Part shown: in pieces, positions 6,090-63,022 of the stretch
Layout: every line of letters begins with the position of its first letter
Position numbering within the stretch: the first letter of the stretch is position 1
Source: an uncultured Candidatus Saccharibacteria bacterium
GTDB lineage: Bacteria > Patescibacteriota > Doudnabacteria > UBA920
NCBI GenBank assembly: GCA_964612745.1
Contig: CAZTCH010000004.1
Span: 29,382-93,381, forward strand
DNA length: 64,000 nt
Direction of reading: 5' to 3'
Program-made: the position numbers and the translations under genes
The notes under the pieces: model-generated
Told to the model about the DNA's origin: nothing
Seen by the model: only the letters and a program-made list of their open reading frames with translations
The model's database searches: none

Positions 6090-6281
6090 ATGTTTGATTT
6101 ACCACCAGTCGTGTACATAGCTATCGGAATAGCTGGGTTTGTTTGCGTTTGGTATTTCACACAAGTCAAATTAACCTGCCAAGAGTGCGGCGCTTCCACA
6201 CGCCCTCAAAAAGAAAAAATAGCCGGCGTTGCCTACAACTACTGCCGGAACTGCGGTAATTGTCTTGGCAAAGCCGCTTAA
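6090..6281 (+). CDS. hypothetical small membrane protein with a CxxC...CxxC zinc ribbon
   Basis: 63 aa; AGGAG Shine-Dalgarno 8 nt upstream; one TM helix followed by CQECG...CRNCGNC. Confidence 0.45.
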   Translation: MFDLPPVVYIAIGIAGFVCVWYFTQVKLTCQECGASTRPQKEKIAGVAYNYCRNCGNCLGKAA

Positions 6282-8694: not shown

Positions 8695-9621
8695 TTACTT
8701 TTGACACTGCGGACAAAAACAAGCTGTTCTACCACCCATCTTCATGCTTTCTATCATACTACCACAGACTTTACACGCTTGTTTTTTCCTCCCGTACACA
8801 AAATGGTACTTACCCATACTCCCCCACGCGCCATCGGTTCGCACAAAGTCGCCCACGCTCGACCCCTTGGCGCGAATCCCTTGGCGCAATACTGGTCCGA
8901 TAGCTTCAAAGATTCGTTGCAACTCAGCAGTGGAGAGTGTAGACACGAGCCTTTCGGGACGCACCCCTGCACAAAATAAAATTTCATCGCTATATATATT
9001 CCCTATCCCAACCACCACGGCGGGGTCCATGAGCACTAGCTTTATGGGGCTCTTGGCTCGTCTCTGTACCGCAAGGATAAATTGCTCACTCGTGAACGAC
9101 TTATCCAAAGGCTCGGGGCCATAGTCTTGCAACTCTTGTATCTGTGCAACAGCATCGTCTGCTACAAGTTTCAAATACCCGAACTGGCGCATGTCATTGA
9201 AGTACAATGTACTACCATCGGTAAACTGAAACACCACATGAGTATGCTTACTGGGCAACTGTACCAGCGGTGCTGAAAGCTTGTTTAAAATTCTATATTT
9301 ACTCCCAGTCTTGGCACGCAAAGCAGGGTCTTCAAAAATAAACTGCCCTGTCATCTTCAAATGCACAAACAACGTATGCGAACCAGACAATTCGAATATA
9401 AGTAGCTTTGCTCTGCGCCGTACTGCTACAACTTGTACACCTTGCAGTGATTTGGCAAACCGTCCGGCAATTGATTTTGAACCTACACGCTTATTCCCCA
9501 GACCTTCTGGCCCAACTGCTACAAGCTTAAAAGACCGGACATCCACAGTACTTATGGTGCGTCCGGCAAGTTTTTTATGCAGCTCTCTAACTACGGTTTC
9601 GACTTCGGGTAATTCGGGCAT
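8695..9621 (-). CDS. mutM: formamidopyrimidine-DNA glycosylase (Fpg/MutM)
   Basis: 308 aa; begins MPELPEVE; H2TH region and C-terminal CxxC...CxxC zinc finger. Confidence 0.9.
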   Translation of the reverse strand: MPELPEVETVVRELHKKLAGRTISTVDVRSFKLVAVGPEGLGNKRVGSKSIAGRFAKSLQGVQVVAVRRRAKLLIFELSGSHTLFVHLKMTGQFIFEDPALRAKTGSKYRILNKLSAPLVQLPSKHTHVVFQFTDGSTLYFNDMRQFGYLKLVADDAVAQIQELQDYGPEPLDKSFTSEQFILAVQRRAKSPIKLVLMDPAVVVGIGNIYSDEILFCAGVRPERLVSTLSTAELQRIFEAIGPVLRQGIRAKGSSVGDFVRTDGAWGSMGKYHFVYGRKKQACKVCGSMIESMKMGGRTACFCPQCQK

Positions 9622-26630: not shown

Positions 26631-26666
26631 TGCCGCGCACGAGAAAAACCCTGCTATACTAGTAGT

Positions 26667-28637: not shown

Positions 28638-29801
28638 ATGTATACAACCACATACCGAAAATTATTTTGGATCAGCGCGCTCGTTCTGAGTGTGGTCATT
28701 GTGCTTGTGCTGGAGAAAAAAGACACGCCACCACTCGCTCCAGACAAAGATCTACTCAGTTACTACACCGAAGCCCAAAGCTTACGACAAGACACAGAGC
28801 GCTCAGTCACTTTTCTGGCTGTGGGAGACATCTCCCTCTCTCGAAATATTGCCGCTGTCATTAAAAAAAAGAACGACCCGCTGTACCCTTTCAGAAAAGT
28901 GGAGACACTACTCCGCTCCACAGATTTTAATTTCGGAAATCTGGAAACACCTTTTTCACAAAGCGACGCGTTTACCGCTCAGAACACACTAGTGTTCAAC
29001 GCGCCAAAAGCAAACGTTGCAGGACTTACCGCGTACAACTTTAAAGTCCTCACCCTTGCAAATAATCATGCATACGACCAAGGGTTACAAGGCATACAAA
29101 CCACAAGGAATCTACTTGCAGACAACAACATCCTTACAACCGGAACCGGCTCGACACTCGATGAAGCATGGACGCCTGCTGTATACACTACACGTGGCAT
29201 GTCCGTCGGTTTTATTGGTGCGTCATATGCTTCCGTAAACGACGGAGGTAAAACAACCAATACGCATGTTGCGCGCATTGAAGACTTACAGAATCTGCAA
29301 TCTGCAGTTAAAAATTTGCAATCCAAAGTCGATTTTATTGTAGTAACTATGCACGCAGGCACAGAATACACTGCTAGTCCAAACCCGGATCAAATTGCAT
29401 TTGCACACGCTGCGATTGATGCAGGCGCTGACATGGTCATTGGTCACCACCCCCACTGGGTACAAGAAAAAGAATGGTACTGCACTGGCACACCGGGGAC
29501 TCGCCTACTCCCTACGCCTCCAACGACAACACAAAGCACTCGTACTTCCGGCTGTGGTTGGATCTATTATAGTCTGGGTAATTTTATTTTTGACCAATCG
29601 TGGAGCGAACAAACGAAAACCGGACTTGCGTTAAAAATTACACTGCGGTCCCGCACCAGACACACACCAGACACTTTGCTACAAAATGCTGGAACACCTA
29701 CGTCAGAGGCACCGTTTACTATTGAAATAGAAGAAGTTCCCATTCGCATAGTAGAAAACTGTTGTGCGCAAGTGCAAAGCGACTCATTTGACACAAACTA
29801 G
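28638..29801 (+). CDS. capA: CapA/PgsA-family metallophosphoesterase (poly-gamma-glutamate/capsule synthesis-type)
   Basis: 387 aa; AVGDISLSRN...LANNHAYDQG...MHAGTEY...IGHHPHWVQ, the CapA motifs. Confidence 0.7.
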   Translation: MYTTTYRKLFWISALVLSVVIVLVLEKKDTPPLAPDKDLLSYYTEAQSLRQDTERSVTFLAVGDISLSRNIAAVIKKKNDPLYPFRKVETLLRSTDFNFGNLETPFSQSDAFTAQNTLVFNAPKANVAGLTAYNFKVLTLANNHAYDQGLQGIQTTRNLLADNNILTTGTGSTLDEAWTPAVYTTRGMSVGFIGASYASVNDGGKTTNTHVARIEDLQNLQSAVKNLQSKVDFIVVTMHAGTEYTASPNPDQIAFAHAAIDAGADMVIGHHPHWVQEKEWYCTGTPGTRLLPTPPTTTQSTRTSGCGWIYYSLGNFIFDQSWSEQTKTGLALKITLRSRTRHTPDTLLQNAGTPTSEAPFTIEIEEVPIRIVENCCAQVQSDSFDTN

Positions 29802-33249: not shown

Positions 33250-33396
33250 ACATTCTCAAAATAATAACTATCTGAATACACATGTCACCGTGAAAATATT
33301 GACATAAAAACAATAAAATGTCATAAAATAGGCTATATTTTGATACTTAGTAAAAAATAATTTTACTTTTATGCCTACTTATGCTATGCTGAACTT

Positions 33397-41280: not shown

Positions 41281-41643
41281 TCAAGAGCGCATGGTGTTAA
41301 TCATAGCATTCAACATTTTCATAACTTCTGTAAGCACACTTTTTACCTTTTTAATTTCATTTTGATTTGCAAGCCCCAGCATAGAAGCAACTTCTATCTG
41401 AGTTTCAAGTTCTGCGCCTGAAGCAAAAGCGATGGTAAGAAACTGACAATAATCTTTTTTGGTGCTTCTATATCTACCCTCAGCAATATTTGAAGGAATA
41501 GAAACTGCACTGCGCCTCATCTGCGACACTAAACCGAACCTTTCAGCATCAGGAAACTGAGCACTGAGCTCATAAACAAATTTAACTACCACCATTGCTT
41601 TTTGCCAAACAATTAAATCTCTATAACTTTGCTTTGTTTCCAT
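41281..41643 (-). CDS. four-helix-bundle protein (TIGR02436 / '23S rRNA intervening-sequence protein' family; same fold family as DGR Avd)
   Basis: 120 aa; YRDLIVWQKA...SQMRRSAVSIPSNIAEGRYR...FLTIAFASGAELETQIEVA. Inserted between DUF3467 and dnaJ inside the dnaK operon. Confidence 0.85.
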   Translation of the reverse strand: METKQSYRDLIVWQKAMVVVKFVYELSAQFPDAERFGLVSQMRRSAVSIPSNIAEGRYRSTKKDYCQFLTIAFASGAELETQIEVASMLGLANQNEIKKVKSVLTEVMKMLNAMINTMRS

Positions 41644-41698: not shown

Positions 41699-41754
41699 CT
41701 ATAAGGTATAAGGTATCAGGTATAAGGTATCAGGTATAAGGTATCAGGTATAAC
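41699..41754. repeat. tandem GGTATAA/GGTATCA heptamers x8
   Basis: GGTATAAGGTATCAGGTATAAGGTATCAGG..., directly upstream of the 4HB gene. Confidence 0.9.
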
Positions 41755-48856: not shown

Positions 48857-48993
48857 AGAACACAGATACACCCGACTTCGCTAAAGCTACGACGGGCAAG
48901 CAAGCAAAACCGATTACACGGATGCAAACCCACTGATGAACAGCATGAATCCGTGTTATCTGTGAAATCTGTGTATCTGTGGTTACACATAAT

Positions 48994-49191
48994 ATGACTA
49001 TTCAAAATTCACTCAAACACTACCGAACAGAAAAAAACCTCACGCAAGAAGACTTGGCGGAGGCTGTTGGCGTATCCAGACAAACCATCATCGCTATAGA
49101 GAAAGGTAACTACACTCCTTCGCTCATGCTTGCAATGCAGCTGGCGCAGTATTTTGCTGTGCCCGTAGAAAAGCTCTTTGTGGTATCCTAA
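48994..49191 (+). CDS. XRE-family HTH transcriptional regulator
   Basis: LTQEDLAEAVGVSRQTIIAIEKGNYTPSLMLAMQLAQYF, a Cro/CI-type HTH. Confidence 0.8.
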   Translation: MTIQNSLKHYRTEKNLTQEDLAEAVGVSRQTIIAIEKGNYTPSLMLAMQLAQYFAVPVEKLFVVS

Positions 49192-49704: not shown

Positions 49705-52563
49705 CTAAAGCATTTTCTTCAAATACTGCCCTGTGTAGCTCGTTTTTACTTTGGCAACTTCTTCTGGTGTTCCCACGGCAACGACTTGCCCACCTTTGTT
49801 TCCACCTTCGGGACCAAGGTCAATAATCCAGTCTGCAGTTTTAATCATGTCTAAGTTGTGTTCAATGACCACAACCGTGTTTCCTTTTTCTACCAACCGA
49901 TTTAACACATGCACCAGTCTTCGTACGTCTCCAAAATGCAACCCTGTGGTTGGCTCGTCTAAGATGTACAGTGTTTTACCAGTGGAAGCACGAGAGAGTT
50001 CGGTTGCCAGTTTAATACGCTGCGCTTCTCCACCAGACAGAGTGGTCGCATTTTGCCCTAAGTGCATATACCCCAACCCAACTTCGGAGAGTGTATCTAA
50101 TTTTTTCTTGATTGCGGGTATATGCGCAAAGAACGTTGCACCTTCATCTACGGTCATTTCAAGTACATCGGAAATAGTTTTACTATTGTAGTGAATCTCG
50201 AGTGCTTCTCTGTTATATCGCTTCCCCTTACATTCTTCACAGGTAATGTACACATCTGGCAAAAAGTTCATTTCCACCTTCAACACACCATCACCAGAAC
50301 ACTTTTCGCACCGCCCACCTTTTACATTAAAGCTAAAACGTCCTGCGCCATAGCCTTTCATTTTGGCTTCTCTGGTTTCTGCAAACAAATCACGAATTGG
50401 CGTGAATAAACCGGTATAGGTAGCAGGGTTACTGCGTGGAGTTCTCCCGATTGGCGACTGGTCAATGTTAATAAACTTGTCGATATGGTCGACGCCCAAA
50501 ATTTTCTTAAACGCCCCTGGTTCGTCTACACTATCGTAAAAAAACTGACCTAAGTGCTTTGCCAAAATATCGTTTAGGAGTGTTGATTTACCACTACCAG
50601 ACACACCGGTAATGCACACCATTTTCCCCAAAGGAATATCCACGTTCACATCTTTCAAGTTAAACTCGGACGCACCAATAATAGACAACTTCTTGCCGTT
50701 GCCTGCTCTGCGCCGTTTTGGAACTTCGATTTTTTCTGTACCAGCCAAGTATCGTCCGGTGCTCGATGCTGTATTTTTCTCTACTTGCGCCGGTGTTCCT
50801 TCTGCAACGAGTTGCCCACCGTGCTTGCCAGCCCCTGGGCCAATGTCTATTAACCAATCTGCTTCGCGCATAGTTTCTTCGTCGTGTTCCACCACAATAA
50901 CGGTATTACCAAGGTCGCGTAAGTTTCTGAGCGTGGCTAAAAGCCGCGTGTTATCGCGTTGGTGCAACCCAATAGATGGTTCATCTAAAATATAGAGCAC
51001 ACCGGTTAGTCCACTCCCAATTTGAGTTGCTAGTCGAATGCGCTGTGCTTCCCCACCAGACAAAGTGTCTGCGGTTCTGTCGAGCGTCAAATATGACAAC
51101 CCTACATTAAGCAAGAAAGACAAGCGAGCACTTACTTCTTTTAATACAAGTTTTGCTATGGCGAGATCTTTAGCATTGAGCTGTTTTGGAAGTGCTTCAA
51201 AAAACTCTGCAGTCTGTTCTATGCTCTGCGCCGATACTTCCACAATCCCTTTTCCGCCAATGGTTACTGCAAGCACTTCTGGTTTTAACCGCTTCCCATT
51301 ACATGTTGGACATGACCGAATGCGCATGTACGTCTCTATATCTGTACGCATAAAGTCTGACTCGGTTTCGCCGTATCTGCGTTCTAAGTTCGGGATGACC
51401 CCTTCGAAGATTGCCACGTAGGAGTTCTGCCCGTAATCCATAGGCATCTGAATTTTTTTGTCGCCCGTACCGTACAAAATTATATCTATATGCTTTTTGG
51501 CAATATCTTTAACGGGTACTTCCAAAGAAAACCCGTACTCTTTCGCAAGAGCAGTCAGCACCCGCAAGTACCAACTCTGACGCCCCACACTTTTACTCCA
51601 TGGGCGAATAGCCCCTTCTGCCAAAGTAAGTTTTAGATTTGGAATAACCAGTTCTGGTTCTACAATAAGCTTATTCCCCAGCCCTTTACACTCGGGACAG
51701 GCACCATGCGGGCTGTTGAAACTAAAGTCACGTGGATCAAGTGAAGTCATTTGTACATGCCCTTCTGGACACGCAAAGTTTTGCGACATCATGGACTCGC
51801 CCAATACTTTTCCTGCTTCGTCTACGGTAAGCACAATAACCAAGCCGTCACCCATTTCTGCTGCTTTTTCTAATGCCTCTGTAAGACGACCACGCTCTTC
51901 TGCGTGCACGCTAATCCGGTCTACCACTACTTCTATAGTATGTTTCTTTTGCTTATCCAAAACACTCGACAGTGCTTCTTGCAAATCCATAACTACACCA
52001 TCTAGGCGAACTCTGGAAAAACCTGCTTTGCGGATATTTTCAAACACCAATCGGTGCTCCCCTTTTTGGTCACGAATAAATGGCGCAAGCAACATAATGC
52101 GCGTACCGGAAGGAAGCCCGAGCAACTGTTCGGTCATGGCGTGGAGCGTCTGCCCTGTAATACGCTTTCCACACACCGGACAATGTGGCACACCAACGCG
52201 CGCCCACAACAGACGCATGTAGTCGTAAATTTCCGTAACCGTACCTACAGTCGAACGCGGGTTGTGGGAAGCAGACTTTTGGTCAATGGAGATTGCCGGA
52301 GAAAGACCATCTATACGGTCCACGTCTGGCTTGTCCATGAGACCAATAAACTGCCGAGCGTACGCAGACAAAGACTCGACGTAGCGCCGTTGTCCTTCTG
52401 CATAAATAGTGTCAAACGCAAGACTCGACTTCCCCGAGCCAGACAACCCTGTAATAACTACCAACTTGTTGCGGGGAATGTCTATGTCTATACCTTTTAA
52501 ATTGTGCTGCCGCGCTCCACGGACAGAAATATATTTAGATGAGTCTTTGGTTTCTTTAGCCAT
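49705..52563 (-). CDS. uvrA: excinuclease ABC subunit A
   Basis: 952 aa; two ABC ATPase modules and Zn fingers. Confidence 0.97.
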   Translation of the reverse strand: MAKETKDSSKYISVRGARQHNLKGIDIDIPRNKLVVITGLSGSGKSSLAFDTIYAEGQRRYVESLSAYARQFIGLMDKPDVDRIDGLSPAISIDQKSASHNPRSTVGTVTEIYDYMRLLWARVGVPHCPVCGKRITGQTLHAMTEQLLGLPSGTRIMLLAPFIRDQKGEHRLVFENIRKAGFSRVRLDGVVMDLQEALSSVLDKQKKHTIEVVVDRISVHAEERGRLTEALEKAAEMGDGLVIVLTVDEAGKVLGESMMSQNFACPEGHVQMTSLDPRDFSFNSPHGACPECKGLGNKLIVEPELVIPNLKLTLAEGAIRPWSKSVGRQSWYLRVLTALAKEYGFSLEVPVKDIAKKHIDIILYGTGDKKIQMPMDYGQNSYVAIFEGVIPNLERRYGETESDFMRTDIETYMRIRSCPTCNGKRLKPEVLAVTIGGKGIVEVSAQSIEQTAEFFEALPKQLNAKDLAIAKLVLKEVSARLSFLLNVGLSYLTLDRTADTLSGGEAQRIRLATQIGSGLTGVLYILDEPSIGLHQRDNTRLLATLRNLRDLGNTVIVVEHDEETMREADWLIDIGPGAGKHGGQLVAEGTPAQVEKNTASSTGRYLAGTEKIEVPKRRRAGNGKKLSIIGASEFNLKDVNVDIPLGKMVCITGVSGSGKSTLLNDILAKHLGQFFYDSVDEPGAFKKILGVDHIDKFINIDQSPIGRTPRSNPATYTGLFTPIRDLFAETREAKMKGYGAGRFSFNVKGGRCEKCSGDGVLKVEMNFLPDVYITCEECKGKRYNREALEIHYNSKTISDVLEMTVDEGATFFAHIPAIKKKLDTLSEVGLGYMHLGQNATTLSGGEAQRIKLATELSRASTGKTLYILDEPTTGLHFGDVRRLVHVLNRLVEKGNTVVVIEHNLDMIKTADWIIDLGPEGGNKGGQVVAVGTPEEVAKVKTSYTGQYLKKML

Positions 52564-52858
52564 AAAGCAGTGAATAGTGGACAGTCGTTCGAGACCCTAA
52601 TGGGTTCTCAGACCCCCGAAGGGTGGGCAGTGACTAGTGGACCAACTGGTGCACTGTTCACTGATAACTGTTTACTGTTATTTATACTAACGTACACCTT
52701 AGCATAAAAATGGAAAAGTTTCAACTGTCTAAGGGTTTCTTAGGGTATTTACCAAGTTAAAGTTAAACAGAATAAAAAAAGAGCGGTGCGTTATTCAAAC
52801 ACATCGCCCGCAAGCCATAAAGACTTTTCAAAGAACAAAAAACTTAGGATTGCTAAGT

Positions 52859-52945
52859 TTATCTTATAGCGACAAAAATGACTGCCGCCCAAAACCCAGC
52901 CAGCGCCAGCACCACCCATCCACATGGAGTGATTCTGGATTTCAT
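52859..52945 (-). CDS. mini-ORF 4 of tandem set (28 aa, MKSRITPCGWVVLALAGFWAAVIFVAIR)
   Basis: AAGGAGG Shine-Dalgarno 6 nt upstream; single TM-like segment; hand-translated, below the ORF-track cutoff. Confidence 0.35.
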   Translation of the reverse strand: MKSRITPCGWVVLALAGFWAAVIFVAIR

Positions 52946-52956
52946 GGCTTGCCTCC

Positions 52957-53076
52957 TTATTCAACAGCCTGAACTGCTGTTGTGAATCTGTCAGTTAATT
53001 TGTGACCGCCGCGCGTAGCAGATAAAACCACTAAGCACAACGCGATTAGAATCAGAATTGAAACAAATGCTTTCAT
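52957..53076 (-). CDS. mini-ORF 3 (39 aa, MKAFVSILILIALCLVVLSATRGGHKLTDRFTTAVQAVE)
   Basis: Its ATG overlaps the stop of mini-ORF 2 (ATGA coupling). Confidence 0.35.
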   Translation of the reverse strand: MKAFVSILILIALCLVVLSATRGGHKLTDRFTTAVQAVE

Positions 53077-53210
53077 AGCACTACCACCGTTACCACATAC
53101 ATAACTATGGCGGCGGCGGCGCCGAAAGCTAGGGCTTTTGGGCTTCTGCTAAATATGGCGGTGACAGCACCACCAACGAAGCCAGAAGCTATAAATGATG
53201 CGAGATTCAT
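53073..53210 (-). CDS. mini-ORF 2 (45 aa, MNLASFIASGFVGGAVTAIFSRSPKALAFGAAAAIVMYVVTVVVL)
   Basis: CAGGAG Shine-Dalgarno upstream; two hydrophobic segments. Confidence 0.4.
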   Translation of the reverse strand: MNLASFIASGFVGGAVTAIFSRSPKALAFGAAAAIVMYVVTVVVL

Positions 53211-53235
53211 AAAACTCCTGTAGTTGTGTCAATTT

Positions 53236-53346
53236 TTACAGTAGCCAAAAATATGCAGCCACTGCGATTACCGTAGCCAAAAGTACGACTACGACAGAAA
53301 CTACACACCCCAATGGTGGTAGTTCTGGCCCGTCGCCTGGGTTCAT
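53236..53346 (-). CDS. mini-ORF 1 (36 aa, MNPGDGPELPPLGCVVSVVVVLLATVIAVAAYFWLL)
   Basis: GGAGGAG Shine-Dalgarno 4 nt upstream of the ATG. Confidence 0.4.
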   Translation of the reverse strand: MNPGDGPELPPLGCVVSVVVVLLATVIAVAAYFWLL

Positions 53347-53507
53347 TTATCTCCTCCTAAAGAGCCAAACAATAGGCTTTTGTGGCAGGTCAGCCGCTTG
53401 GCTGCCTGCGGGGTTTTATACATAACTACTCGCGCAAGTGCGAGTATTTATGCTATGGTTATACCACAATAGTCAACATTCGGCAATAGCCAGCACACAC
53501 CCCCAAA

Positions 53508-55553
53508 ATGGCCCAAACACTACAAAACCAAATAGTTCACTTCCCTCACGCTGCAGGATGCTACCTTTTTAAGGACGCCGCTGGAGTGGTTTTGTACGTG
53601 GGCAAAGCAAAAGACTTGCGAAAGCGCACATCGCAATACTTCGGGCAAGACAAACGACCACAGCTCCCCTTTTTAATAGAGGAAGCCACGAGCATAGATT
53701 TTATAGTAGCCCGAACTGAGCTAGAGGCGCTGTTTTTGGAAAACACGCTCATTAAAAAGCACAATCCTAAGTACAACATTAAACTAAAGGACGACAAAAA
53801 CTACGCGTTCATTGCCATTAACAACAGCACGCAAATCCCCCAAATTGGGTATGTCCGCAAAATTACTGACTCGGCTAGTTTTACCCCATTTGTAAATCCA
53901 TCCGCCTCTTGGGGTAGTGGCAAACACGAACGCAAACGGCTAAAAGTAACCAGCAGCAAACGAGGGGCATCCTCGTCTGCCGCTGACGAGGATGCCCCTC
54001 GTCGTGCAGCAACCCATCTCTTACCAGCTAATTCCTACTTCGGGCCGTACAGTTCGGTAAAAAAAATCCGCGATACGCTAGATTTTGTGCGGAAGATTTT
54101 CCCTTACTGTGCAAATACCGAAGTTGGTACGCGTCCTTGTTTTTACTACCACCTACATCGCTGTCCTGGGGTTTGTATTGGCGTAATTAGCTTAGAAGAA
54201 TACGCTGGCAGTCTTGAACGTATAAAACTGTTTTTGCAAGGAAAGACTCAAGCAATAAAGAAAGAACTACGCACGAGCATGCACGCAGCTTCTGCCAACA
54301 AACGGTTCGAGCTTGCCGCACGATTGCGTGACCAACTCAAGGCACTTGAGCTACTAGACGAACGACAGATTGCCCAGTTCCCCAGCAAAGTAAATTATGA
54401 CTTTATATCTACCGCAGAATCCGGTGCTTTGTGTTGTGTGAATTTGTTTAAAGTACGCGACGGCAAACTCACCGACAAAGAAAGTTTTGTGTACAGCCAA
54501 ACAACCACCGAGCAAGTTATCGAAGAAGAAAATACAAACCAAGTTGTTTCTTCTGCGGCCATGTTCCAACAAAAATTTGCCGAAACGTACTACGCAGAAA
54601 CAACAGACGTCCCTGCTGCGATTTTTACGCAACACGCATTCCCCGACCCTGACTTTATTACCGCCGTCCTCCAACATCGCACAACAAAGAAAATACCACT
54701 CAGCGTGCCCAAACGTGGTAAACAAGTACAACTCATTTCTCTTGGTGCAACAAATGCAGCAGAGTACTTGCGCAAAACACTCGCCACAGACGCTACCGAT
54801 GCCGACAAGCTACACGAAGCACTCGTCTTTCTACAGCAAACACTCAAGCTACCTACCTTACCCAGACGAATAGAATGCTACGACATGTCCAACACGCAAG
54901 GCACCAACCCTGTGGGAAGTATGGTTGTGTTTGTAGACGGCAAACCAGCCAAATCGGAATACCGTAAATTTAAAATCCGAAGCAAAGACACTCCGGACGA
55001 CTTTGCCATGATGCGAGAAGTACTAACTCGTAGACTCGCCAGAATGCAAAATGCAAAATTAGAAATGCAAAATGAAGAGCAAGAGACTTCTGCGCTCCCG
55101 CTCTGGCCAAGACCCGACCTTATAGTAATTGACGGTGGCAAAGGACAACTCTCGGCTGCTCTATCTGCGCAAGATTCATTTCTAAAAGGTATAAGCTATA
55201 AGCTAGCAGCTATTCCAATGGTTGGACTTGCCAAGCGCATAGAAGAAATTTTCCTACCAGAAAACCCTGTACCAATTATTCTGAATCACGACACTCCTGC
55301 ACTGCAAATGTTGCAAAGGCTACGTGACGAAGCTCATCGTTTTGGCATAACCTTCCACCGCTCTTTGCGCAGCAAACAAGCTACCAAATCTGCGCTGGAC
55401 ACCATTGCTGGAATTGGTCCAAAAACAAAAAAACTGCTCAAACAAAAGTTTGGAACAGTCAGCGCCATAAAAGAAGCGCTCCGCACAGAACCAGAAAAAC
55501 TGGAAGCACTCGTAGGTAAAGTAAAAGCAGAGATACTAAAGAAAAATCTGTAA
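53508..55553 (+). CDS. uvrC: excinuclease ABC subunit C
   Basis: 681 aa; GIY-YIG N-terminus (GCYLFKDAAGVVLYVGKAKDLRKR), UvrBC region, C-terminal HhH. Confidence 0.95.
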   Translation: MAQTLQNQIVHFPHAAGCYLFKDAAGVVLYVGKAKDLRKRTSQYFGQDKRPQLPFLIEEATSIDFIVARTELEALFLENTLIKKHNPKYNIKLKDDKNYAFIAINNSTQIPQIGYVRKITDSASFTPFVNPSASWGSGKHERKRLKVTSSKRGASSSAADEDAPRRAATHLLPANSYFGPYSSVKKIRDTLDFVRKIFPYCANTEVGTRPCFYYHLHRCPGVCIGVISLEEYAGSLERIKLFLQGKTQAIKKELRTSMHAASANKRFELAARLRDQLKALELLDERQIAQFPSKVNYDFISTAESGALCCVNLFKVRDGKLTDKESFVYSQTTTEQVIEEENTNQVVSSAAMFQQKFAETYYAETTDVPAAIFTQHAFPDPDFITAVLQHRTTKKIPLSVPKRGKQVQLISLGATNAAEYLRKTLATDATDADKLHEALVFLQQTLKLPTLPRRIECYDMSNTQGTNPVGSMVVFVDGKPAKSEYRKFKIRSKDTPDDFAMMREVLTRRLARMQNAKLEMQNEEQETSALPLWPRPDLIVIDGGKGQLSAALSAQDSFLKGISYKLAAIPMVGLAKRIEEIFLPENPVPIILNHDTPALQMLQRLRDEAHRFGITFHRSLRSKQATKSALDTIAGIGPKTKKLLKQKFGTVSAIKEALRTEPEKLEALVGKVKAEILKKNL

Positions 55554-56095: not shown

Positions 56096-56845
56096 CTACA
56101 AAGGCAGCTTTGCCAAGCCGTGATGGTAAGAGTAAATTGCCAGCTCAAAGCGGTCACCCACATCAAGCTTGGCAAAAATCGAAGACAAGTGATGCCGAAC
56201 GGTAATAACACTCAGCGAGAGCCGGTCGGCAATTTGTTGATTGCGCAAACCCTCACCGAGTAAACCAATAACTTCTCGCTCGCGTTCAGTAAGCTGTGCA
56301 ATCTTGGCTGCTTCGTCAGGTTCGCTTGAACCCGCTTGTTGCCAAGTTTGTACTATTTGCACAGCCTGTGACCCTATAGCTTGAGCTGTTGGCACGTCAG
56401 ATTGTTTGGTAGTCCACAGATCAGACAACATTCTTGCGGCCAACGCTCCATCTACCCATACTTCACCAGCATGGACTTTTGTTATAGCAGCCACCAGAGC
56501 TTCACTGGAATCCGTTTTTCGAACAATGCCGTATGCGCCAATCATTACGATTTTGTACAACATGCCTAAGTCGCGCACGCCAGTCAAAACCAAAATTTTA
56601 GCTAGGGGCATTTTTTCCAGTAACTTTGGAATACAGTCAAAATCTAGCCCCCCATCTTTTTGATGGATGTCAAGCAAAATTACATCTGGTTGGTAGTGCG
56701 CAGCAGACGCCCCACCAAGTTCTTCTAACGTTAATTGAGCTACAACTTGGAATCTTTGTGATTCAAGCAGTAGCACTAAGCCAGCACGCATGACTCCTTC
56801 GCCTTGCACGACTAGAACCTTTATGGCAGGTGCGATAGCAGACAT
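56096..56845 (-). CDS. LuxR/NarL-family response regulator with an atypical receiver (acidic pocket replaced, VVQGEG)
   Basis: REC-like N-terminus with conserved LLD and T/K positions; C-terminal LuxR HTH (LTEREREVIGLLGEGLRNQQIADRLSLSVITVRHHL). Confidence 0.75.
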   Translation of the reverse strand: MSAIAPAIKVLVVQGEGVMRAGLVLLLESQRFQVVAQLTLEELGGASAAHYQPDVILLDIHQKDGGLDFDCIPKLLEKMPLAKILVLTGVRDLGMLYKIVMIGAYGIVRKTDSSEALVAAITKVHAGEVWVDGALAARMLSDLWTTKQSDVPTAQAIGSQAVQIVQTWQQAGSSEPDEAAKIAQLTEREREVIGLLGEGLRNQQIADRLSLSVITVRHHLSSIFAKLDVGDRFELAIYSYHHGLAKLPL

Positions 56846-59144: not shown

Positions 59145-59231
59145 GGGCGTATGGTGGAATTGGTATACACGTACGCTTCAGGTGCGTATGGGAGTAATCC
59201 CGTGAGAGTTCGAGTCTCTCTACGCCCACCA
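59145..59231 (+). tRNA. tRNA-Leu (anticodon CAG), long variable arm, CCA encoded
   Basis: GGGCGTA acceptor, TGGTGGAATTGGTA D-arm (the Leu signature), anticodon loop UUCAGGU, variable arm GGGAGTAATCCC, T-arm GAGTTCGAGTCTC, ...TACGCCCACCA. Confidence 0.8.
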
Positions 59232-59303
59232 TTTATATACAACACGTCCCGCCGCATGGCGGGGTGACCGCAAGGTCGTGGAGGTTCGAGTCCTCTTCTG
59301 GGC
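59228..59303 (+). repeat. tRNA-3'-half-like unit X (ACCA + 19-nt spacer TTTATATACAACACGTCCC + hairpin + T-arm + acceptor 3' strand + ACCA). A partial copy lies at 60402-60456.
   Basis: 59228-59282 is identical to 60402-60456 (55/55). Confidence 0.7.
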
Positions 59304-59380
59304 ACCATTTATATACAACACGTCCCGATGTCGCATCGGGATGGGAGCAATCCCGTGAGAGTTCGAGTCTCTCTACGCCC
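59304..59380 (+). repeat. 77-bp direct repeat Y-left (contains the 3' 40 nt of tRNA-Leu: variable arm + T-arm + acceptor 3' strand). Putative attL.
   Basis: Identical to 60325-60401 (77/77). The internal GGGAGCAATCCCGTGAGAGTTCGAGTCTCTCTACGCCC matches tRNA-Leu 59192-59228 with one mismatch. Confidence 0.8.
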
Positions 59381-59425
59381 GCAGTAAGAAAAAAGTATCG
59401 GCAGACCCGAGTGCTTTTAAAAAAT

Positions 59426-60241
59426 ATGTCTCACGGATTAACATATATAAAATCAAAAGGTAAATGTATTTATTGCGATAAATCAGATACCGATCTTAGC
59501 GATGAACATATTGTACCACTTTCCCTTGGCGGCGTTCATATTATACAAAAAGCGAGTTGTTCTAATTGTGCAAAAATAACAAGTGGTTTTGAAGGTAACG
59601 TTGCTCAGGGTTTATGGGGTGATGCGAGGGTAGCTTTTAACGCTCCGACGCGACACCTTAAAAAAAGAAAGGGTGTTATTTCTACTAAAATTTCTCAAGG
59701 CACTAAAGAAATTGAAATTTCAAGTACTGAATATCCTGCCGGCTTTGTTTTTTACCGCATGAATATTCCAGGTATATTACAAGGACTACCAGAAAATAAG
59801 GATGTTTCTGCTTTATGGACAATGGATATGGTTGACGATGACAAAAGGAGAGAGGATTTTTTTAAGAAACACGGTAGCTATCCAACACTAAAGTTTAAAC
59901 ACGTACCTCAAGATTTTGGGCGAATGCTGATTAAGATAGGCTATGGACATATTCTGACCTTTCTCGAGCCTGAAGATTTCAACCCTTTCTGTTTGCCATA
60001 TATTTTGGGAGAAAAACAAAATGTATCTTATTTGGTTGGGGAGCAGGCAAAAAATGTTGCTCCTAGCCTTGACCTGGGATATTCGCTTCATGCAAAAGGT
60101 TTTGTGATTTCAGAAAATAGACTTTTACTAATTGCAATAGTTAGACTTTATGCGAACACACATTCTCCTGAATATGAAATAGTGGTTGGTGATGTTCTTG
60201 GTTTTGAAAAAATTACTCAAGTTTTGAAAAAGATAACATGA
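59426..60241 (+). CDS. HNH-endonuclease-domain protein (N-terminal CxxC...HIVPLSLGG...CxxC HNH motif; C-terminal about 200 aa of unknown function) on an AT-rich cassette
   Basis: 271 aa from the ATG at 59426; the track ORF upstream extension is read-through of the tRNA-like repeats. GC is about 35%. Confidence 0.6.
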   Translation: MSHGLTYIKSKGKCIYCDKSDTDLSDEHIVPLSLGGVHIIQKASCSNCAKITSGFEGNVAQGLWGDARVAFNAPTRHLKKRKGVISTKISQGTKEIEISSTEYPAGFVFYRMNIPGILQGLPENKDVSALWTMDMVDDDKRREDFFKKHGSYPTLKFKHVPQDFGRMLIKIGYGHILTFLEPEDFNPFCLPYILGEKQNVSYLVGEQAKNVAPSLDLGYSLHAKGFVISENRLLLIAIVRLYANTHSPEYEIVVGDVLGFEKITQVLKKIT

Positions 60242-60324
60242 CCTAAGTGCCCCACAAACCCAAGAGAAAAGTGCTAGAATGTCCTTACAAGGGTTATATC
60301 TCTGGGTACTTAACCCGAGTGGTC

Positions 60325-60401
60325 TACCATTTATATACAACACGTCCCGATGTCGCATCGGGATGGGAGCAATCCCGTGAGAGTTCGAGTCTCTCTACGC
60401 C
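60325..60401 (+). repeat. 77-bp direct repeat Y-right (putative attR)
   Basis: See Y-left. Confidence 0.8.
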
Positions 60402-60480
60402 CACCATTTATATACAACACGTCCCGCCGCATGGCGGGGTGACCGCAAGGTCGTGGATGCTTAAATCTTCTTCCGAGGAG

Positions 60481-60522
60481 CAGTAATAGTGGCTGACCAA
60501 TTTGGTCAGTCACTATTACTTT
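60481..60522 (+). terminator. near-perfect 18-bp hairpin (AGTAATAGTGGCTGACCAA-TTT-GGTCAGTCACTATTACT) followed by TTTG
   Basis: Visible palindrome immediately after the repeat block. Confidence 0.6.
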
Positions 60523-60623
60523 GTGTGCAAGAGAGGGCAAGAAGAACAACATCCAAAACCTTGAAACCCCTACAAATCCTCACTGTTACTCCCTATATTT
60601 AAGCGCTATTTACGCTATTTCGA

Positions 60624-60652
60624 TTGACAAAAGCAGATGACCAAGCTATAAT
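60624..60652 (+). promoter_or_regulatory. consensus sigma70-type promoter TTGACA-N17-TATAAT, about 385 nt upstream of rnj
   Basis: Perfect -35 and -10 hexamers with a 17-nt spacer; no ORF with a Shine-Dalgarno downstream until rnj. Confidence 0.6.
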
Positions 60653-61036
60653 GTGTTGGCAAGTAGACGAACTCCAAAGAAACAAAATTCTTACAGTTTA
60701 CAAATCAGACCTAGAAAACAGTTTTTTATTTTTGATTTGTTAATTGTGCCCCATCTTTTTGTGGGACCAAATTCTTATTGTGGCGATTGCATAAATCACA
60801 CGGTAAGCCTCAGGCATTTTTTGCCCAGCACGAGTTAACAATTTGCGTAATTCGAAAGAGCATAGCATCTACTGACGTTTATTAGGTGCAGAGATAAGAC
60901 GCTATATTTCTCAAGAATTATTCTTCTATCAAATAAGTGGCGAACCAGCTTTTCGCGACCAATAATACAGCGACCGATTTTATTTTACCGCTTGTTATTC
61001 TGGACCTGCACGAGCTGGTCACCACAATAGACACAC

Positions 61037-62972: not shown

Positions 62973-63022
62973 CGTAAACCCCTACTGGCACAAGCCAATC
63001 CCTCCTTGCTATACTAATACAT

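Follow-up and report, generated by a model that had tools for sequence, protein, structure and literature searches.

The window analysed here is a 64,000-nucleotide stretch of DNA from an uncultured Candidatus Saccharibacteria bacterium (GTDB lineage Patescibacteriota; Doudnabacteria; UBA920), corresponding to positions 29,382 to 93,381 of contig CAZTCH010000004.1 (assembly GCA_964612745.1). The repair genes uvrA and uvrC are divergently oriented in the window, and the spacer between their starts measures 944 bp, in line with the ~940 bp given in an earlier, sequence-only reading of this DNA. The spacer hosts four consecutive open reading frames (ORFs) of 36, 45, 39 and 28 amino acids (aa), here called p1 to p4, which fill the interval 52859-53346. 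These mini-ORFs, overlooked in the ORF list because of its 60-aa cutoff, had been placed by the sequence-only reading on the minus strand, and all four are present there and co-oriented. They form an independent operon on the uvrA strand, driven by Shine-Dalgarno (SD) sequences, which encodes four mini-proteins and resides on a 623-bp cassette swapped among strains. Coordinates of the features of the locus are collected in Table 1.

The SDs of p1, p2 and p4 are separated from the ATG by 4–6 nt, and the AAGGAGG motif of p4 is the best of the four ORFs. p3 features no canonical SD, and the early claim of a strong SD ahead of each ORF holds for the other three ORFs only. The p3 ATG overlaps the p2 stop codon as ATGA (4-nt overlap), which is the coupled pair already recognized in the sequence. 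An SD match of at least 4 nt, of any kind, precedes just 7 of the 49 long ORFs of the window, and the SDs of the cassette therefore stand out. ATG ORFs of 25–70 aa combining an SD with a stretch of transmembrane (TM)-grade hydrophobicity are four in the six frames of the 64-kb window, and three of the four reside at this locus. At least three SD-led ORFs of at least 28 aa were found in 1 of 5000 dinucleotide-preserving shuffles of the region, an ORF coverage of at least 89% in 13 of 5000. The four-ORF arrangement is more than a chance event.

All the peptides are hydrophobic, with a grand average of hydropathy (GRAVY) of 1.0–1.6 and a G+A+V+L+I content of 54–62%, as anticipated when they were described as TM-like and dominated by Gly, Ala, Val and Leu. 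Strings fitting the pattern P-(L/C)-G-(C/W)-VV are found in both p1 and p4, as had been reported, but the paralogy proposed on this basis was rejected: p1-p4 is the best pair among the four peptides, yet its similarity is not significant (Smith-Waterman z 2.5; 4/300 shuffles), and p1 homologues do not retain the pattern. No significant similarity was detected in any other pair.

Table 1. Features of the uvrA-uvrC spacer and of its flanks (positions in the window)
Feature	Position	Strand	Description
uvrC	53508..55553	+	
Divergent control region	53375..53507	.	132-nt block, 92-95% identity in L005 despite the cassette difference
Candidate cassette -10, TGGTATAAC	53466-53458	-	putative; back-to-back with the uvrC extended -10
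uvrC extended -10, TGCTATGGT	53451-53459	+	motif, within the control region
20-bp palindrome/hairpin	53427-53446	.	TACTCGC-N6-GCGAGTA (TACTCGCGCAAGTGCGAGTA); perfect 7-6-7
Second hairpin of the 5' untranslated region	53409-53385	-	fold prediction
Replaceable cassette	~52752..53374	-	623 bp; SD-led ORFs and their terminators; boundaries by alignment
p1	53346..53236	-	36 aa, MNPGDGPELPPLGCVVSVVVVLLATVIAVAAYFWLL; SD AGGAGGAG at 53358-53351
p2	53210..53073	-	45 aa, MNLASFIASGFVGGAVTAIFSRSPKALAFGAAAAIVMYVVTVVVL; SD CAGGAG at 53220-53215
p3	53076..52957	-	39 aa, MKAFVSILILIALCLVVLSATRGGHKLTDRFTTAVQAVE; no canonical SD, GGUGGU at 53088-53083 only
p4	52945..52859	-	28 aa, MKSRITPCGWVVLALAGFWAAVIFVAIR; SD AAGGAGG at 52958-52952, 6 nt before the ATG
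Candidate antisense promoter, TGCTAAGTT	52851..52859	+	extended -10-like; abuts the p4 stop, points into p4; hypothetical
Terminator-like hairpin 1	52834..52860	-	AACUUAG-CAAUC-CUAAGUU + U run, directly after the p4 stop
Terminator 2	52771..52809	-	GC-rich hairpin followed by UCUUUUUUU; fold prediction
uvrA promoter	52724-52719 (TTGAAA), 52704-52696 (extended -10, TGCTAAGGT)	-	TTGAAA-17-TAAGGT; cassette flank
uvrA promoter and hairpin leader	52567..52724	-	flank of the cassette, outside it
uvrA	52563..49705	-	

Relatives of the locus were fetched with UvrC, and correspond to metagenome-assembled genomes labelled Candidatus Saccharibacteria or Doudnabacteria (candidate phyla radiation, CPR, or Patescibacteria); their loci have been designated L001, L002, and so on. 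The divergent uvrA-uvrC pair is kept in all of them, with spacers of 150–3000 bp. In the closest clade the spacer holds SD-led hydrophobic mini-ORFs on the uvrA strand, several of which are called as genes in public protein sets. p1 homologues were found at the same locus in L003/L161 (MNPEDGPELPPFGKW...YYWW; Smith-Waterman z 15.8 vs shuffles) and in L002 (z 11.1); the L002 homologue is the sole gene of its spacer. A more distant p1-like form is found in L005, L164 and L165. p1 is kept at the locus in relatives down to ~66% UvrC identity and, judging from this distribution, is the conserved core gene and the most persistent occupant of the spacer. p3 homologues reside in L005 and L164 (z 8.0); they share conserved LSA, T-R and AV-E positions, and are likewise ATGA-coupled to an upstream ORF, which differs from p2.

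Selection at the codon level was measured by comparing L005 and L164, which carry the same cassette type at moderate divergence; this is a sister cassette, not that of the window. The ratio of nonsynonymous to synonymous substitution rates (dN/dS) is 0.15 in the p3 homologue (10 synonymous and 5 nonsynonymous changes, 10 of the 15 at third codon positions), 0.22 in a 32-aa ORF, 0.13 in the p1-like ORF and 0.30 in a glycine-zipper ORF. When the p3 homologue and the 32-aa ORF are pooled, the third-position bias has p = 0.004, and synonymous versus nonsynonymous changes give a Fisher p = 2e-4. The sister cassette is under purifying selection (dN/dS 0.13–0.30). Loss of the reading frames in related genomes, which would have spoken against the ORFs, was not seen: p1 and p3 have syntenic homologues, and substitutions in the sister cassette are mostly synonymous. 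Conservation of the region as a structured RNA, the other alternative considered at the outset, is at odds with the lack of nucleotide conservation of the cassette between close strains and of any Rfam match in the spacer. Codon usage was scored as a log-likelihood trained on the long genes of the window. p1 (0.25), p2 (0.23) and p3 (0.14) score as in-frame gene segments (0.23 ± 0.12), out-of-frame segments being at -0.31.

p2 (P0003) and p3 (P0004) are called proteins in an NCBI-derived set, where p2, p3 and UvrC form singleton clusters; p1 and p4 are absent from a collection of 15 billion proteins. Searches with p2 and with p1 and p3 profiles returned only the proteins of the window and those of close relatives, and an exhaustive profile search, run against 1.84 billion representatives, brought one more protein, P0007. 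All the homologues found, the exhaustive search included, are themselves proteins of 35–48 aa, which excludes that the mini-ORFs are decayed fragments of a larger gene; an origin as pseudogene fragments of a larger membrane protein was ruled out on this ground. The p1 and p3 families number two to three relatives each. By the measure of these searches, p1 and p3 each represent a new and very narrow family of small proteins, and p2 and p4 are orphans. It is very likely that p1, p2 and p3 are real genes and p4 a probable one, the evidence for coding being strong for the former and moderate for the latter. The initial proposal of genes for small membrane peptides is thus backed by homologues, selection and codon usage.

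No significant Pfam match was found for p1 to p4, and p2 yielded no hit at E <= 10. Nothing significant was found for the cassette peptides in NCBIfam, PHROGs and PADLOC. Viral collections contained no p3 relative, and a degenerate DNA pattern derived from p1 was without match in them. A metagenome scan with UvrC retrieved only relatives of at most 55% identity, none of which carries the mini-ORFs, and a literature search gave no description of the locus. The Flp/Fap pilin family (PF04964) was examined as a candidate for p3, which has a hydrophobic helix at the N-terminus and a short tail, as these pilins have. The candidate was discarded, as the score is far below the cutoff (E = 0.04; 14.2 vs 32.2 bits), the G/XXXXEY motif is missing and no tad genes were found. 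The glycine-zipper clan includes PF05433 (Rick_17kDa_Anti), PF13441 and PF13488, as also PF10439 (Bacteriocin_IIc). A 54-aa peptide of L003/L161 scores 24.1 bits on PF05433, just below the 24.2 cutoff; zipper peptides of the relatives also touch PF13441 and PF13488, and match PF10439 weakly. These peptides share the architecture of p2, and homology of p2 to them is marginal (hhalign P = 0.011). p2 itself, which had no hidden Markov model (HMM) hit, does not reach the PF05433 gathering threshold.

The four peptides would all insert into the cytoplasmic membrane of the producer, and with good confidence the ORFs can be said to encode resident small membrane proteins, their residence being deduced from composition and predicted helices. 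p1 is acidic (isoelectric point, pI, 4.1); its N-terminal motif is rich in proline, a single TM helix follows, and the C-terminus is aromatic (YFW/YYWW). The N-terminal motif is conserved in the family as MNP(E/G)DGPxxPP. K/R residues flank the helix N-terminally in three p1 homologues, suggesting an N-in orientation; p1 of the window has no basic residue. p1 is probably a single-pass anchor, with the conserved acidic/proline motif turned toward the cytoplasm. In the AlphaFold2 model of p2 (predicted local distance difference test, pLDDT, 81.5), helices span residues 3–21 and 24–44. (G/A/S)xxx(G/A/S) repeats occur in both, with small-residue faces made by S5-S9-G13-T17-S21 and A26-G30-A34, and p2 may be a two-helix, small-xxx-small (glycine-zipper-like) hairpin able to self-associate. 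p3 starts with a signal-anchor or signal peptide carrying the conserved LSA, followed by a 19-aa polar tail. The tail would be membrane-anchored or secreted, and made only upon translation of p2, given the ATGA coupling. p4 features a single TM helix, and would be a single-pass protein.

The boundaries of the cassette emerge from the comparison with L005 and L164. The window and L164 are 97.1% identical over 751 nt (5' part of uvrA, leader and promoter); the identity ends abruptly at 52750, and no similarity follows. Identity between the window and L005 is 93.9% as far as 52751 and resumes, at 92.3%, at 53375, a point located 29 nt before the p1 ATG. The DNA in between (52752-53374) has no nucleotide similarity to either locus. 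In L005 and L164 the slot is filled by a 53-aa glycine-zipper ORF, the 32-aa ORF, a 42-aa p3 homologue, an internal terminator and the p1-like ORF (43/41 aa). UvrA proteins are 98.8% identical while uvrA synonymous divergence (dS) is 0.15–0.40. The islands are unrelated despite a uvrA dS of just 0.15 between the window and L164, which points to replacement rather than drift; the claim rests on the sharp boundaries and on this pair of loci. Two ORFs of the L005 and L164 cassettes have a dS of ~0.13–0.37 and the other two of ~1.5, indicating a recombinational mosaic. On the evidence of these alignments, the slot of closely related strains is occupied by another assortment of mini-proteins, with diverged homologues of p1 and p3 among them.

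In distant relatives the slot hosts unrelated, mostly SD-led cargo, always on the uvrA strand. The spacers examined in the wider clade were those of L084, L086, L010, L081, L006, L016 and L161. Their cargo includes a Trypsin_2 protease and Zn-ribbon proteins (L161), zf-HC2 (L084), patatin (L086) and PaaX-like (L010) proteins, as well as ORFans. Since the cargo is unrelated across the lineage, the uvrA-uvrC spacer is viewed as an accessory-gene hotspot, and looks like a site of insertion or recombination. Repeats of the att type were sought at the cassette boundaries; only short, chance-level repeats are present, and this possibility was set aside. The L162 island contains a 54-aa ORF with a zinc ribbon and a hydrophobic tail. 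In L001 (~5929-5735, -) a strong-SD ORF (MNSKELS) ends at a TAG, and continues in frame into a 36-aa signal-peptide-like ORF (MKILVVVLVLLLGVIAFGLSGSK...); the pair could be a small gene split by a nonsense codon or two separate ORFs.

The next minus-strand genes are located beyond uvrC, and the cassette must therefore have its own promoter in the conserved block 53375-53507. We infer its exact position from the candidate -10 box. Downstream, hairpin 1 was seen by folding and missed by the terminator scanner, which demands at least 3 G-C pairs and overlooks AT-rich stems. A counterpart of terminator 2 (hairpin and T-run) ends the cassette upstream of the uvrA promoter in L001, L002 and L005. 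With tandem terminators followed by the conserved uvrA promoter, the cassette is, by its predicted signals, a transcription unit of its own. The ~450 bp surrounding the ORFs, to which no function had initially been assigned, can now be divided into a divergent promoter/5' untranslated region (UTR) block, the two terminators, and the uvrA promoter with a ~130-nt hairpin leader.

uvrA has no SD. Its ~130-nt 5' leader (52567-52700) contains five CAGTGAACAGTG-like 12-mers in both orientations, and is predicted to fold as one long hairpin, which is kept in L001 and L005. The L002 leader forms a hairpin of the same shape from different TACGAA/TTCGTA repeats (z -4.3), suggesting that structure rather than sequence is conserved. 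uvrA (52696-52708, -) and uvrC (53447-53459, +) have in common a 13-nt promoter motif, TTTATGCTA[A/T]GGT, which includes the extended -10. The palindrome of the control region is found where the uvrC -35 is expected and where the putative transcript of the cassette begins; no other copy is present in the window. It may act as an operator, and the LuxR-type response regulator encoded nearby (56096-56845) and the HTH_3 protein (48979-49191) are possible binders.

The 488-nt sense RNA spanning the four ORFs has a minimum free energy (MFE) of -187.9 kcal/mol, corresponding to z = -6.3/-6.4 vs dinucleotide shuffles; the antisense strand has a z of -3.2. For forty control sense segments of the same length, drawn from long genes, z averaged -0.53 ± 1.17 and did not fall below -3.3. 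Low values were obtained also for the non-homologous cassettes of the relatives (L005, -5.4; L164, -5.6; L001, -4.0; L161, -3.3; p1 alone in L002, -3.4). When synonymous codons were permuted and the protein kept, z was -4.5 for the window (0/100) and -3.2 for L005 (0/80). The cassette mRNA is thus predicted to be exceptionally structured, also after synonymous shuffling. In the predicted fold of the transcript, the p2 SD pairs with codons 7–9 of p2 itself and the p2 AUG has an unpaired probability of 0.06; the start region of p4 is base-paired to a complementary stretch of 12 nt within the 3'UTR (AUG unpaired probability 0.08). The ribosome-binding site (RBS) of p3 is buried within the p2 coding sequence, which fits translational coupling, and the p1 SD is about half open (~0.5). 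In L005/L164, the two start regions are predicted to pair with each other, and the 22 substitutions leave all 92 predicted pairs unbroken.

At the 3' end of the cassette the TGCTAAGTT site is one of three intergenic TGCTANNNT motifs in the window not located upstream of a same-strand gene. In L001, L003, L005 and L164, cassette ORFs likewise have antisense motifs of this kind at their 3' ends or close to them. The motifs are at most suggestive of a 3'-end antisense promoter. In the window as a whole, TGCTANNNT is enriched in intergenic DNA, which hosts 13 of the 36 sites in 16% of the sequence.

The reading that we tentatively favour, at rather less than an even chance, is that the cassette is a translationally throttled, membrane-active module of the toxin type. 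Its output would be throttled after transcription by a compact mRNA occluding the start sites, with a 3'-overlapping antisense RNA as a possible additional control. The zipper hairpin of p2 would likely be the membrane-perturbing component, with the single-pass peptides as modulators or antidotes, and conflict-type selection would lie behind the strain-to-strain turnover of the cassette. Hallmarks of type I toxins are hydrophobic peptides shorter than 60 aa, mRNAs sequestering the RBS, and antitoxin RNAs overlapping the 3' end (PMC8309996). The reading is favoured because hydrophobic peptides of this size, a predicted RBS-occluding mRNA and a possible 3' antisense RNA match these hallmarks. 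It is favoured also because polymorphic ionophoric toxins, such as CdiA-CT/CdiI, use glycine-zipper helices and are accompanied by polymorphic membrane immunity proteins (PMC11630599), and because cassette turnover between strains fits conflict-type loci. The type I-toxin-like option, one of those listed in the sequence-only reading, has been strengthened by the hyper-structured mRNA and the occluded starts that folding predicts.

Compared with known type I toxins (B. subtilis bsrG/SR4, S. aureus sprG1/SprF1, E. coli zorO, tisB and dinQ), the cassette is alike in encoding hydrophobic peptides below 60 aa with a TM helix (28–45 aa, GRAVY 1.0–1.6), in the compact mRNA predicted to occlude starts, in the candidate antisense promoter at the 3' end, and in occupying a strain-variable slot beside SOS-type genes. 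It differs in joining four cistrons for unrelated peptides in one operon, where strong SDs and ATGA coupling are present, and in having an antisense RNA that is only a candidate; no sequence similarity to these toxins was found. The cassette is not a member of the type I family as defined, being polycistronic, with a candidate antisense RNA only and toxicity argued by analogy. With glycine-zipper 2TM domains, p2 shares the predicted helical hairpin and its small-xxx-small faces. As toxin/immunity pairs of the CdiA-CT/CdiI type, the cassette is strain-polymorphic. p2 differs from such toxins in being a free-standing 45-aa peptide with neither an HMM hit nor a delivery domain.

Several points weigh against a toxin-type module, or against parts of it. 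Type I toxins are normally monocistronic, and the cassette is a four-gene operon with strong SDs. The link of p2 to glycine-zipper families is architectural only. p4, the least certain of the four ORFs, has no homologue among the relatives searched and an ambiguous codon score (0.01). By consensus the candidate cassette promoter is weak, its TATAAC having a C in the last position, and the scanner did not pick it up. The RNA structures are all predicted. In the synonymous test, the 44 control segments averaged -0.74 ± 1.23, with one outlier at -4.06 (5' part of uvrC, 53601-54089, +). The count of unbroken pairs in L005/L164 comes from an alignment of two sequences, in which RNAalifold favours compatible pairs. 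The antisense promoter is a 9-nt motif, the terminator scan gave no antisense terminator, and the antisense motif is missing in L002, which carries p1 alone. Retention of p1 down to the UvrC identity mentioned above, under purifying selection, is more what one expects of a housekeeping-like gene than of a disposable toxin.

This last observation speaks for benign, resident small membrane proteins, comparable to AcrZ, MgrB and MgtS of E. coli, a reading that is the main rival and only somewhat less likely than the toxin type. The peptides would be non-toxic, regulating larger membrane proteins or assisting them as accessory partners, and folding of the mRNA would stabilise the message or enforce coupled, stoichiometric translation. 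Small membrane protein regulators of this type have been reviewed (PMC12648545). The likeness lies in single-pass proteins below 50 aa, recognised by RBS and conservation. Whatever speaks for coding and for a membrane location holds for this reading too, and no antitoxin, exporter or immunity gene was identified by PADLOC or among the window ORFs scanned. In contrast, AcrZ, MgrB and MgtS are usually encoded singly, by or co-regulated with their targets, and here four proteins reside in a swappable cassette with no linked target or partner membrane gene, next to the cytoplasmic repair genes uvrA and uvrC. For the same reason, absence of partner genes, the suggestion of small subunits of a membrane complex was abandoned. 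Replacement of the cassette between very close strains and mRNA folding far beyond the range of the other membrane-protein genes of the window also disfavour benign proteins.

A secreted multi-peptide bacteriocin, of class II with a leader or leaderless, accompanied by a small immunity protein and aimed at competitors or hosts, is unlikely. It would account for four co-transcribed small peptides and for a cassette polymorphic between strains, and may find some support in the weak matches of the relatives' zipper peptides to Bacteriocin_IIc and glycine-zipper families and in the signal-peptide-like p3 with its LSA. Aureocin A70, garvicin KS and staphylococcal PSM-alpha are peptides mutually homologous, amphipathic and mostly cationic, exported by dedicated ATP-binding cassette (ABC) transporters. 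The likeness of p1–p4 to them is in the arrangement, as tandem SD-led ORFs of 20–45 aa on one transcript, easily missed by annotation. p1 to p4 are mutually unrelated, feature TM-grade hydrophobicity rather than a cationic amphipathic character, and include an acidic member. No double-glycine leader (LSxxELxxIxGG-type) is visible in p1–p4, and no ABC/C39 exporter or other obvious partner was found among the 20 window ORFs scanned. The class II bacteriocin-like function listed in the sequence-only reading was dropped on these grounds, along with the lack of Pfam hits.

Quite unlikely is that the cassette encodes DNA damage-coupled small membrane proteins, as TisB, DinQ and SidA, co-regulated with uvrC through the divergent control region. 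TisB and DinQ are membrane toxins under SOS control (PMC8309996). The position between uvrA and uvrC, the putative promoter back-to-back with the uvrC extended -10, the palindrome, and the promoter motif common to the two uvr genes are all compatible with such coupling. The palindrome is unique in the window, the repeats of the uvrA leader were not found at the cassette promoter, and a LexA-type shared operator was judged improbable accordingly. No LexA was identified, and L001, L002 and L003 do not keep the intergenic sequence. The unrelated cargo hosted by the slot elsewhere (patatin, zf-HC2, PaaX-like) denotes a hotspot, not a regulon. That the ORFs are not genes at all, but chance frames in a spacer that yields a structured non-coding RNA, or what frameshifts have left of a larger gene for a membrane protein, is hardly credible: the strong folding of the sense strand, the poor standing of p4, and the absence of p1 and p4 from the protein collection could be so explained, but close strains share no nucleotide conservation here, Rfam is silent, substitutions in the sister cassette are codon-periodic, p1–p3 follow in-frame codon usage, each ORF has its own SD or ATGA coupling, and the homologues are all small proteins.

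Other features of the window concern start signals and small or unassigned elements. 42 of the 49 long genes lack an SD, and many feature an extended -10 (TGnTAnnnT) instead. TGCTATACT-type boxes end 6–7 nt before several starts, as at 26652-26660 (+), 33382-33390 (+) and 63007-63015 (+), and in three genes an extended -10 ends 6 nt before the ATG. This arrangement suggests that leaderless mRNAs are widespread in the genome. The only other SD-led hydrophobic small ORF of the window (6090-6281, +) is 63 aa long, features one TM helix and a CxxC...CxxC zinc-ribbon-like tail, and is found in an 804-bp gap; the 54-aa ORF of the L162 island is comparable to it. Three copies of TGATACCTT at an exact 14-nt spacing (41710-41746, -) are located upstream of a 120-aa ORF (41281-41643), and short direct repeats of 6–9 nt occur just upstream of several other starts (groEL, 8695-9621, 47225, 48979). 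An HNH_5 endonuclease ORF (59145-60241) lies directly after tRNA-Leu(CAG), and is followed by a 795-bp gap (60242-61036) with no called gene and two unassigned TGCTANNNT motifs (60272, +; 60867, -).

Small membrane proteins and accessory-gene hotspots are already known; their combination at this locus has no description in the literature searched. To our knowledge, annotation systematically overlooks small hydrophobic proteins, and next to no work exists on those of CPR bacteria. The locus provides four small-protein candidates with comparative evidence, among which p1, marked by the MNPxDGPxxPP motif, and p3 represent new families. A broader view, which we regard as doubtful, is that of a new kind of chromosomal expression slot of CPR bacteria, in which the conserved promoter/5'UTR next to uvrC would drive interchangeable sets of mini-proteins, membrane toxins and modulators, whose translation a hyper-structured polycistronic mRNA, and perhaps a 3' antisense RNA, would gate. 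A 2025 paper (PMC12390103) states that type I systems had until then been found only in Proteobacteria, Firmicutes and Tenericutes. If the view of an expression slot is true, this would be, as far as known, the first type I-like membrane-toxin system described in the phylum, polycistronic, cassette-swapping and possibly damage-coupled. If the peptides are toxic, type I-like toxin biology would be extended to a new phylum and to a polycistronic format. The sharp exchange of cassettes, along with an mRNA of outlier predicted structure, makes the locus a testable case for the encoding and control of membrane-active peptides in ultra-small episymbiotic bacteria.

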